Source of the DNA: Escherichia phage bumzen
DNA: 64,000 nucleotides
Reading direction: 5' to 3' (one strand)
Sequence record: MN850635.1
In this document: in pieces, positions 34,989-36,034 of the stretch
How positions within the stretch are numbered: position 1 is the first letter of the stretch
How the letters are laid out: the number at the start of each line of letters is the position of its first letter
Program-made: the position numbers and the translations under genes
Notes under the pieces: generated by a model
The model's input: the letters and a program-made list of their open reading frames with translations, nothing else
Databases searched by the model: none
Told to the model about the DNA's origin: nothing

Positions 34989-35429
34989 TTAGAAAGGTTT
35001 TCTACGTTGCTTGTTAATGTTAGCTTTCATAGCAGCTAAATGGTTTTGCTGTTCAATCAGTCGTGAACGTTCTTGATGACTAAGCGCCATAGTGTTCACA
35101 TTCTCAATTGCTTGAGTGGCTTGCTTTAAAGCTCGACCAATCTTACCAGACATTTTGCGTTTTGCAATAGTTGCTTGATGCTTAGGTTCAACCACACGAT
35201 AACCAACACCCATTGAAGCAACCAGATAAATCTTCTCTTCTTTAAGAAGCTTTTCAATAAACTTCTCAAGTCGGTTTAGACGTGTAAGTGCATAAGCCTT
35301 CATTTCATCTTCGTACTTAACAATGTCACCTTGATAAGTTGGCTTCACAATACCTAAGAAGGTATCCATCTCGGAATGTGATACAGTGTCGCCGTAACTA
35401 AACTTTGCTGCTAATGCTTTTGTATTCAT
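34989..35429 (-). CDS. hypothetical protein (cassette gene 2)
   Basis: 146 aa, basic C-terminus; flanked by the two repeat regions. Confidence 0.5.
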   Translation of the reverse strand: MNTKALAAKFSYGDTVSHSEMDTFLGIVKPTYQGDIVKYEDEMKAYALTRLNRLEKFIEKLLKEEKIYLVASMGVGYRVVEPKHQATIAKRKMSGKIGRALKQATQAIENVNTMALSHQERSRLIEQQNHLAAMKANINKQRRKPF

Positions 35430-35431
35430 AA

Positions 35432-36034
35432 TTAAACGTTACCTTCTGAAATAACTTCTACAGAAAAACGACCAAAGCGTGGACGCCAATCACCTACACC
35501 ACAAAGGTTACCAGCATTTTCCAGAACCATCAGAAGTTCCTCTTTGGTGATTTGCTCTTCATCAAACATCAAACCAAACTCTACAGACCAGTCACGGAAG
35601 ATTGGACGGTAGCTCATAACTCGTGCTGTACCAATCTTAACAGACTTAGCATAGATAAAGTCTGGATTCTTAGCAAGTTCTTGTGGGTTTGCTGGACAGT
35701 TCTTGATAGTCATTGGGAAGACTACATCTGTCAGCATAATGGCTCGGTCAATTACCTTACCAAGTTTGTTGAGTTTTGCACCAGACTTGATACAAGCCTC
35801 AATCATCTCACCGTTCATAACAAAACCAAGTTGCTCATCGTAGTAACAAGAAGTTACCAGTTGGCTTTCTGCTAAGAGCGCATAGTCTTCGTCAGTCTTT
35901 TTACGTTTACTGGACAGAGACTTGTGATATTTTGTCAGAGGGTTTAATGGGTCTGACAACGTATCGTTATGGCTCAAGAAAGGACGAGTACCAGTGATTT
36001 TGATATTTAGCAGTTTCATAGCATTTAGCTCCAC
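35432..36034 (-). CDS. hypothetical protein (cassette gene 1)
   Basis: 200 aa ORF; no motif I can name. Confidence 0.5.

Follow-up and report, generated by a model that had tools for sequence, protein, structure and literature searches.

A locus of Escherichia phage bumzen very likely encodes a complete type II VIPR with five guides against an E. coli satellite

Introduction

The minus-strand locus at positions 34559-36417 of the DNA studied here, a 64,000-nucleotide stretch of Escherichia phage bumzen (MN850635.1) that is called the window throughout, is very likely a complete type II VIPR of the SUSP1 clade, residing in a Felixounavirus and carrying five guides directed against an E. coli satellite. 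VIPR (Viral Interference Programmable Repeat) is a phage-encoded, CRISPR-like system for RNA-guided DNA binding that was described in 2026 preprints (bioRxiv 10.64898/2026.04.26.720920,.720927). Each of its guide RNAs (vrRNAs) consists of 9-16 YNNGG repeats and a structured 3' tail, for a total of ~100 nt, and one Vipr protomer occupies each repeat such that GGY is sequestered and NN is exposed (bioRxiv 10.64898/2026.04.26.720920,.720927). The exposed dinucleotides pair with double-stranded DNA, reading two bases and skipping one, and the resulting R-loop or "triplex" filament blocks transcription of the target without cutting it, an effect that is enhanced by Vap1 (bioRxiv 10.64898/2026.04.26.720920,.720927). 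For the type example, SUSP1 (Escherichia phage phiSUSP1, KT454805; PDB 36pp), sRNA-seq revealed ~100-nt RNAs that arise from the repeat tracts and are co-purified with Vipr, and altered guide dinucleotides re-target repression (bioRxiv 10.64898/2026.04.26.720920,.720927).

All testable defining features of a type II VIPR are present at the window locus. The system is already known, in that its proteins are 98-99% identical to those of the type example in the 2026 preprints, and it is rated as such because it is the published example in all but its guides. What is added here is a guide-by-guide map of targets, an extra upstream vrRNA, and a duplication within one guide, D2. Formation of the ribonucleoprotein, the triplex structure, and transcriptional silencing are carried over from the SUSP1 preprints and would apply to the window phage by analogy, and all five of its vrRNAs are presumably expressed.

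The window derives from a wV8/LF82P9-like Felixounavirus. Over the 2.3 kb around the locus, identity reaches 96% with Felixounavirus LF82P9, and a large number of other coliphages and Salmonella phages, wV8 among them, show 92-95%. The locus had been flagged from sequence alone by a reader without tools, whose interpretation (hereafter, the sequence-only reading) is considered below where the results bear on it.

Results

The proteins encoded by vipr and vap1

The sequence-only reading described minus-strand open reading frames of 200 and 146 amino acids, and both are indeed present (Table 1). The larger frame (35432-36034) yields 200 amino acids if it is read from a GTG at 36034. Translation almost certainly starts instead from the ATG at 36019 and yields 195 amino acids, because a GGAG lies 9 nt upstream of this codon, because a 588-nt coding sequence is annotated in both wV8 and SUSP1, and because the alignment to the PDB chain begins at residue 6 of the 200-residue frame.

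The product of vipr matches PDB chain 36pp_D, "SUSP1 Vipr protein", with E=7e-128, and is identical to SUSP1 Vipr at 191 of 195 positions (98%). The structure paper names 14 contact residues, responsible for reading G1, G2, and Y3 and for clamping both DNA strands, target and non-target (bioRxiv 10.64898/2026.04.26.720920,.720927). Thirteen of these 14 residues are kept in the window protein with the same numbering (H17, K33, R39, E71, M72, K82, G87, K88, R138, C173, D177, W178, and R179), and the remaining position, given as T175 in the paper, is V both in the window and in the SUSP1 GenBank record. The sequence-only reading had found no motif in either protein. This claim stands insofar as Pfam offers no family for Vipr or Vap1, PADLOC holds no model that either protein matches, and PHROGs places both in families of "unknown function" only, but it fails for the larger protein, which has a RAMP-type glycine-rich loop. 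This loop had been suspected from the sequence before the PDB match was made, and the suspicion was borne out.

Homologs of Vipr number 520 at E<=1e-3. Distant homologs (32-43% identity) occur in phages of Pseudomonas, Gordonia, and Listonella. Proteins at least 90% identical are encoded in 117 phage records of the collection searched, and among those listed, every annotated record calls the protein "hypothetical protein" or "Phage protein".

The vap1 frame begins 3 nt past the vipr stop codon. Its product is identical at 145 of 146 positions (99%) to the syntenic SUSP1 protein encoded beside vipr, whose gene was named vap1 and whose product enhances protection (bioRxiv 10.64898/2026.04.26.720920,.720927). 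A word-indexed homolog search with Vap1 returned near-identical relatives and fragments only, and an exhaustive search returned 234 relatives with 21-37% identity. An AF2 model built from a 60-sequence alignment (pLDDT 96.4) has an N-terminal winged-helix-like domain, composed of three helices and a beta-hairpin, followed by two long helices. Fold searches with this model gave no significant structural match, searches of the PDB by single sequence and by profile gave none, and Pfam found no family in the 60 Vap1 relatives. Vap1 is a probable small DNA-binding protein.

Table 1. Features of the VIPR locus, listed in the direction of the minus strand; guide dinucleotides are given for each vrRNA
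Feature	Positions	Strand	Description	Guide NN
Sigma-70-like promoter (predicted)	36390-36417	-	TTGACA-16-TATACT; 11/12 consensus; upstream of first vrRNA	
U1 hairpin leader	36321-36358	-	Precedes U1 tract	
vrRNA U1 (predicted)	36221-36320	-	13 YNNGG units, 36256-36320; T1-type pseudoknot tail, 36224-36255	AA GT TC GC GA AT GG AG AT AT GC AA AT
U2 A-type leader	36188-36220	-	Precedes U2 tract	
vrRNA U2 (predicted)	36096-36187	-	12 YNNGG units, 36128-36187; T2-type pseudoknot tail, 36096-36127	AA CT GT AG TG AT AC CC GT GT AC AT
vipr	35432-36019	-	195-aa RAMP-family protein; PDB 36pp_D match	
vap1	34989-35429	-	146-aa VIPR accessory protein; 145/146 identity to SUSP1 counterpart	
Intrinsic terminator	34953-34977	-	UUCG tetraloop; after vap1	
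vrRNA D1 (predicted)	34841-34927	-	11 YNNGG units, 34873-34927; T1b pseudoknot tail, 34841-34872	GA AA GC CT AA AT AT TG GA GA AT
vrRNA D2 (predicted)	34684-34778	-	12 YNNGG units, 34719-34778; T1 tail, 34687-34718	TC AG CT AG AA CT CT AG CT AG GA AT
vrRNA D3 (predicted)	34559-34650	-	12 YNNGG units, 34591-34650; T3 pseudoknot tail, 34559-34590	AA GC AT GG AA AG TA GA CA GA TT AT

Five predicted vrRNA genes flank the two protein genes

The two frames sit between two blocks of period-5 GGY-NN repeats, as the sequence-only reading had stated in describing a cassette enclosed by repeat-rich regions. A pattern of five GGTNN units with at most one mismatch matches 24 times, compared to 0 matches in 100 shuffles. 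Every match is to the minus strand and falls in either 34590-34904 or 36132-36169, the rest of the 64 kb having none; a fifth, more degenerate tract occupies 36256-36320. The flanking repeats are built from a 135-145-nt unit that occurs five times, twice upstream of vipr-vap1 and three times downstream, and the vrRNAs predicted from these copies span 87-100 nt. In U1, five of the 13 units are degenerate, all of them at the first G and one (TATAA) also at the second. Expressed vrRNAs of SUSP1 hold AGT and TGT units that are similar to these degenerate ones.

To place these tracts among their relatives, the window was compared with 18 IMG/VR loci whose Vipr is 97-100% identical, for a total of 75 vrRNAs and 960 units. 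Across the 960 units the Y position is a pyrimidine in 100% of cases, the first G is kept in 86% and the second in 98%, and the NN positions are near-uniform in composition. The 75 vrRNAs carry 56 unique guides, and array size varies from 0 to 3 vrRNAs upstream and from 0 to 3 downstream. The U1 and U2 guides recur unchanged in wV8 and three other phages or contigs, the D1 guide has close variants in four contigs, and the D3 guide is absent from the 18 other VIPR loci compared.

The three tail types differ in sequence and keep one H-type pseudoknot with stems of 4 and 7 bp. Within this pseudoknot, 93% of cells are paired, compared to 28-37% when the partner strand is slid, and compensatory double changes occur in nine of the 11 pairs. 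These compensatory changes therefore indicate selection at the level of RNA.

A search of the whole locus against Rfam found no model for the vrRNA, and the repeats are not discussed in the genome papers of Felix O1 and UAB_Phi87. GenBank records label them "DR_4" in wV8 and "possible binding site of StbAB" in KhF3. These labels predate the discovery of VIPR and should be superseded.

Transcription signals and neighboring genes

The promoter-like element upstream of the first vrRNA (Table 1) is also found in SUSP1, and its -10 element coincides in part with an inverted repeat, GGTGAGTA...TACTCACC. The element probably drives U1-U2-vipr-vap1. The UUCG-loop terminator noticed earlier downstream of the cassette was recovered as a hairpin at 34962-34977 (AGCCTC-TTCG-GAGGCT, minus strand) followed by CCTTTTT.

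Two conserved motifs characterize the vrRNA leaders, namely AAAGGTCTTT-N4-AGGGTCTTTTAAT and a hairpin, ATCACTTAAG...CTTAAGTGAT, and neither is found elsewhere in the window. These motifs may serve as promoters specific to vrRNAs, as sites of processing, or as sites where Vap1 binds. According to Pfam and PHROGs, the eight genes at 32687-37710 include a DNA ligase and an HTH regulator, and the rest are without Pfam families and belong to PHROGs of no known function; no Cas family matched any of the eight.

Candidate guide targets in an E. coli satellite

Each guide was converted by the published rule into a pattern with a 1-nt skip (NNxNNx...). The 64-kb window contains no site with five or fewer mismatches to any of the five guides. 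The satellite that guides of the SUSP1 clade target has a baseplate protein similar to that of the phage (bioRxiv 10.64898/2026.04.26.720920,.720927), and therefore 5,426 complete E. coli genomes were searched with the baseplate-hub gene region of the window (20959-23074). Of these genomes, 475 harbor a related "phage baseplate protein" gene, with up to 92-94% nucleotide identity to the window gene at 20959-21756. This gene sits in an ~11-kb chromosomal island that is integrated at yciI/tonB, yecN/yecD, or ymdF/wrbA, and that in most sampled loci carries serine recombinases, small open reading frames, often an HNH endonuclease, and tape-measure and baseplate proteins. Strains that bear the satellite include E. 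coli O111:H21 15A and ACN001. Twenty-two satellite loci (426 kb) were sampled, 11 of them from IMG/VR, which represents a small fraction of the at least 475 in total. The sampled loci also covered flanking chromosome, and some had neighboring prophage genes. As controls, the order of the units in each guide was shuffled, with 100 trials per guide.

All five best matches in the 22 loci fall in the one small satellite element. The strongest are those of U1, which matches the satellite tape-measure gene at 23 of 26 positions, with the first ten units perfect and the same site found in nine loci, and of D3, which matches a 128-amino-acid open reading frame at 22 of 24; for neither guide did any of the 100 shuffles do as well. 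Matches of moderate strength were found for D1 and D2. The D1 match (19/22, with eight consecutive units perfect) is intergenic, upstream of a satellite gene of ~710 nt, recurs at the same position in seven loci, and was equaled by two of 100 shuffles, and that of D2 (20/24, with the first eight units perfect) is in the tape-measure gene of a second satellite lineage and was equaled by one of 100. The match for U2, antisense in the same satellite tape-measure gene, is weak and the assignment is tentative, in that 19 of 24 positions agree relative to a background of 17-18 of 24, and three of 100 shuffles did as well.

The preprint counts a match of at least 80% of NN positions as a target; at this threshold U1, D1, D2, and D3 each have one in the satellite, and U2 falls just below. 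No guide is matched perfectly in any of the 22 satellites. The exact U2 and D2 patterns were also run against IMG/VR, GTDB genomes, and JGI metagenomes and yielded no exact match and nothing better, and a relaxed U2 core pattern yielded only the known satellite site and unrelated matches.

Two further properties of the matches concern the reading rule itself. For all five guides, the 1-nt skip outperforms skips of 0, 2, or 3 nt across the 22 satellite loci, the other skips remaining at a background of 15-18. In every coding match, moreover, the skipped base is codon position 3, and placement of the skip at the wobble position has been reported for VIPR (bioRxiv 10.64898/2026.04.26.720920,.720927).

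A single vrRNA with a compensated T2-type tail is encoded within each of four of the 22 satellites, and satellite-encoded vrRNAs are also mentioned in the preprint (bioRxiv 10.64898/2026.04.26.720920,.720927). Neither vipr nor vap1 was found in any of the 22, and a satellite of this kind would need to use Vipr from its helper.

The targeted satellite probably parasitizes the phage. In the mechanism proposed here, window Vipr would polymerize on the vrRNAs, and the filaments would bind target double-stranded DNA. The five guides would be aimed at the ~11-kb E. coli satellite, whose tape-measure and baseplate genes are related to those of the phage. On infection of a cell that bears the satellite, the satellite tape-measure gene, small open reading frame, and one promoter-proximal region would be silenced, and the phage would be parasitized less, from which it presumably benefits.

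Discussion

Possible other purposes for a genuine VIPR

There is some small chance that the VIPR is genuine and that the satellite is not its main purpose, with the guides serving instead against the phage's own genes, host genes, or other phages, or that U1, U2, and D2 are decaying and nonfunctional. The degenerate units of U1 might be read as decay, but the U1 and U2 guides are the same in wV8 and three other phages, and this conservation argues for selection. Likewise, the imperfect matches of all guides, the poor case for a U2 target, and the offset between D2 and its best target (see below) must be set against the concentration of all five best matches in one small element, even though the loci searched held chromosome and prophage sequence too, and against the wobble-position register of every coding match. 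Self-targeting finds no match in the phage's own 64 kb. Finally, the clade survey identified targets for just 20 of 41 guides, which leaves room for other roles, and yet 18 of those 20 targets lie on the satellite, the conclusion that the preprint reached for the clade (bioRxiv 10.64898/2026.04.26.720920,.720927).

Protein-binding repeats and decoy RNAs as unlikely alternatives

The sequence-only reading envisioned a separately regulated accessory module such as anti-defense, host takeover, or origin-binding proteins. That the module is a separate one holds up: it is self-contained, has its own promoter and terminator, and is functionally tied to the flanking repeats. The two genes are not a routine replication or structural pair, the outcome that would have spoken against this reading. 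The specific functions proposed for it were not sustained, as the repeats are genes for guide RNAs, rather than protein-binding DNA iterons or regulatory repeats, and the larger protein is a RAMP predicted to polymerize on them. Anti-defense was the closest guess, in the loose sense of counter-parasite warfare, because the predicted targets lie in a satellite that probably parasitizes the phage.

Dense direct repeats around two small genes, one of which encodes a winged-helix-like domain, could suggest DNA iterons of a replication origin or a partition (centromere) site bound by the two proteins, and the StbAB note in the KhF3 record points the same way. However, a 5-nt unit with three conserved and two hypervariable bases is the opposite of what a protein-binding iteron requires, the tracts are confined to one strand and are each followed by a structured tail with compensatory changes, and the larger protein corresponds to a solved RNA-binding RAMP. 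Pfam gave no match for the proteins, the Rep, ParA/ParM, and StbA families included, and the corresponding SUSP1 tracts are made into ~100-nt RNAs that co-purify with Vipr. The iteron reading is effectively refuted and retains only a minute probability. The idea of an origin or centromere had been dropped on account of the variable bases in the 5-nt unit, and comparison with partition sites such as StbA-stbDR and ParR-parC disclosed no identical, helically spaced repeats and no cognate Rep, ParA, ParM, or StbA family.

Equally improbable is an anti-defense or host-takeover cassette whose G-rich repeat RNAs act as CsrB- or TRAP-like decoys that sequester an RNA-binding protein of the host. Periodic GGY triplets resemble RNAs that titrate proteins at multiple sites, the genes lie in an early region among small accessory genes, and neither protein has a PADLOC model, all of which would suit such a decoy. 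Nevertheless, the NN positions hold information that matches an external element under only one spacing rule, which a decoy would not need, the repeats are bound by Vipr, a protein of the phage itself, and NN changes were shown to re-target repression in SUSP1. A protein-titrating RNA of the TRAP or CsrB kind had also been weighed from the sequence alone and dropped, as had two-tetrad G-quadruplexes, Chi-like GGTGG motifs, and clusters of T7-type primase sites (GGGTC/TGGTC).

Relation to known RNA-guided systems

A VIPR of the SUSP1 clade thus remains the favored identity of the locus, and its correspondence to SUSP1 is close. The genes are placed alike in the two phages, with the DNA ligase gene on one side and the downstream small genes on the other, and the leader types, three pseudoknot tail types, promoter, and terminator are alike, whereas every guide sequence differs. 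SUSP1 has one upstream and three downstream vrRNAs and the window has two and three, with U1 lacking a SUSP1 counterpart. The window tracts contain 11-13 units; the upstream tract of SUSP1 contains 12 YNNGG units (11 in the GGYNN register), and its first two downstream tracts contain roughly 14-16. The two-unit duplication in D2 is a further difference from SUSP1.

Other VIPR types, including that of a P. fulva prophage, similarly combine a Vipr RAMP with GGY/NN vrRNAs, a 1-nt-skip code, and targets in competing mobile elements. They can have nuclease or helicase accessory genes and ribozyme-interspersed or staggered arrays, and their targets include prophage lysis-lysogeny regulators (bioRxiv 10.64898/2026.04.26.720920).

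With the RAMP proteins of Class 1 CRISPR-Cas systems (Cas7, Cas5, and Cas6; Cascade), VIPR shares the RAMP/RRM fold, the glycine-rich loop, and a base-flipping thumb, and with the Class 1 effectors it shares a helical filament on a guide RNA and an R-loop on double-stranded DNA. VIPR differs in that it has no repeat-spacer array, adaptation module, PAM, or nuclease, and in that its guide is non-contiguous, with two of every five RNA bases pairing with two of every three DNA bases. The window VIPR differs further in being encoded by a virulent phage. CRISPR-Cas itself was rejected as an identity for the locus, which has no array of identical repeats of ~28-37 nt with unique spacers, only units of ~135-145 nt with pentamer tracts, and no cas1, cas2, or other cas genes by Pfam and PHROGs or, for Vipr and Vap1, by PADLOC.

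A functional analog is found in the Vibrio phage ICP1, in which, as Seed et al. reportedly described in 2013, a type I-F CRISPR-Cas system is directed against the chromosomal PLE satellite, acquires spacers, and destroys its target. In both cases a lytic phage carries RNA guides matching a chromosomal satellite parasite, but VIPR only binds and silences whereas the ICP1 system destroys. Unlike the spacer-acquiring system of ICP1, VIPR has, to our knowledge, no acquisition machinery.

Guide D2 and variation among guides

The D2 guide corresponds to a 10-unit guide found in another phage (L035; TC AG CT AG AA CT CT AG GA AT) with an in-register tandem duplication of two units (CT AG, 10 nt), which Tandem Repeats Finder reports as a 30-nt period. 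The 10-unit guide matches the satellite tape-measure gene at 20 of 20 positions. The duplication puts D2 out of register with its sole good target, and therefore D2 may be impaired. Alternatively, it may be tracking a satellite variant, lying outside the sample, that has two extra codons (Leu-Ser). Other guide families in the clade vary by number of units and by single NN substitutions, and whole vrRNA cassettes have been gained, lost, or swapped among phages whose Vipr is 97-100% identical.

Implications

The window locus reproduces, independently and on a small scale, the published rules for satellite targeting and for the pseudoknot tail with a different set of guides, and the 117 phage records that encode a Vipr at least 90% identical could be re-annotated. 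More broadly, VIPR shows a 20-kDa protein and an RNA of <100 nt reading double-stranded DNA by a gapped code, and it has been proposed as an ancestor of CRISPR RAMP proteins. A more speculative thought, to which we give somewhat less than even credence and which should be regarded as doubtful, is that the window captures VIPR guides in the course of evolving without acquisition machinery. If this is true, guide diversity would arise from replication slippage, point mutation, and recombination at the conserved leaders and tails, and the guides would track codon-pair insertions and deletions in the satellite's tape-measure gene, which is repetitive.

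Leaders, promoter and neighboring genes

The vrRNA tracts are preceded by conserved leaders of two types, one carrying AAAGGTCTTT-N4-AGGGTCTTTTAAT and the other forming a hairpin, ATCACTTAAG...CTTAAGTGAT. Within the 64-kb window, the AAAGGTCTTT-N4-AGGGTCTTTTAAT motif does not occur beyond the vrRNA leaders, where it may act as a promoter, a processing site or a Vap1 site. This motif is not discussed in the VIPR preprints. Upstream of U1 lies a sigma-70-like promoter with an overlapping inverted repeat, GGTGAGTA ... TACTCACC. Phage SUSP1 retains this repeat, a candidate operator or 5' hairpin. 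At the position of the window's 48-aa ORF, SUSP1 carries unrelated sequence. The minus-strand gene block of the VIPR locus also holds a homing-endonuclease-like ORF and an HTH_3 regulator.

Feature coordinates in the window and in sampled satellite loci (L numbers)
Feature	Location	Strand	Remark
Inverted repeat	window 36363-36405	-	overlaps promoter -10
ORF, 48 aa	window 36424-36570	-	strongly hydrophobic; between DNA ligase gene and VIPR promoter
Homing-endonuclease-like ORF	window 38974-39507	-	AP2/HNH-type
HTH_3 transcriptional regulator	window 33577-33906	-	
vrRNA leaders	window 36188-36220, 36321-36358, 34928-34961, 34779-34840, 34651-34683	-	
Guide D2	window 34719-34778	-	
Baseplate-hub gene	window 20959-21756	+	
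Satellite vrRNA	L008 4719-4783	-	
Satellite vrRNA	L015 4920-4984	-	
Satellite vrRNA	L016 1802-1861	-	
Satellite vrRNA	L017 4919-4968	-	

Guide duplication and database records

Guide D2 corresponds to a guide of another phage with an in-register, two-unit (10-nt) tandem duplication added, and the unduplicated sibling perfectly matches its target. D2 may be a snapshot of slippage-driven guide evolution, or else a dead guide.

GenBank KT184315 (KhF3) annotates the vrRNA tracts as 'possible binding site of StbAB', and NC_012749 (wV8) labels them 'DR_4'. Among the phage records listed, vipr is a 'hypothetical protein' or 'Phage protein', and vap1 is a 'hypothetical protein' in the records checked. 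GenBank GU169904, labeled as a 147-kb Staphylococcus phage (SA1), contains a 92% identical copy of the Felixounavirus VIPR locus (90657-92817) encoding a 99.5% identical Vipr; its host label or assembly looks suspect.

Links between phage and satellite

Among 5426 complete E. coli genomes, 475 carry an ~11-kb chromosomal satellite with a baseplate gene. Nucleotide identity between that gene and the phage baseplate-hub gene reaches 92-94% over the first ~520-775 nt of the phage gene (satellite loci L005-L010 and L022-L026), a similarity that points to recent gene exchange between helper phage and satellite. Four of the 22 sampled satellites carry one vrRNA apiece, with compensatory changes in the pseudoknot tail and guides that have no match to the window. 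Because vipr and vap1 are absent from all 22, any satellite vrRNA would need the Vipr of a helper phage.
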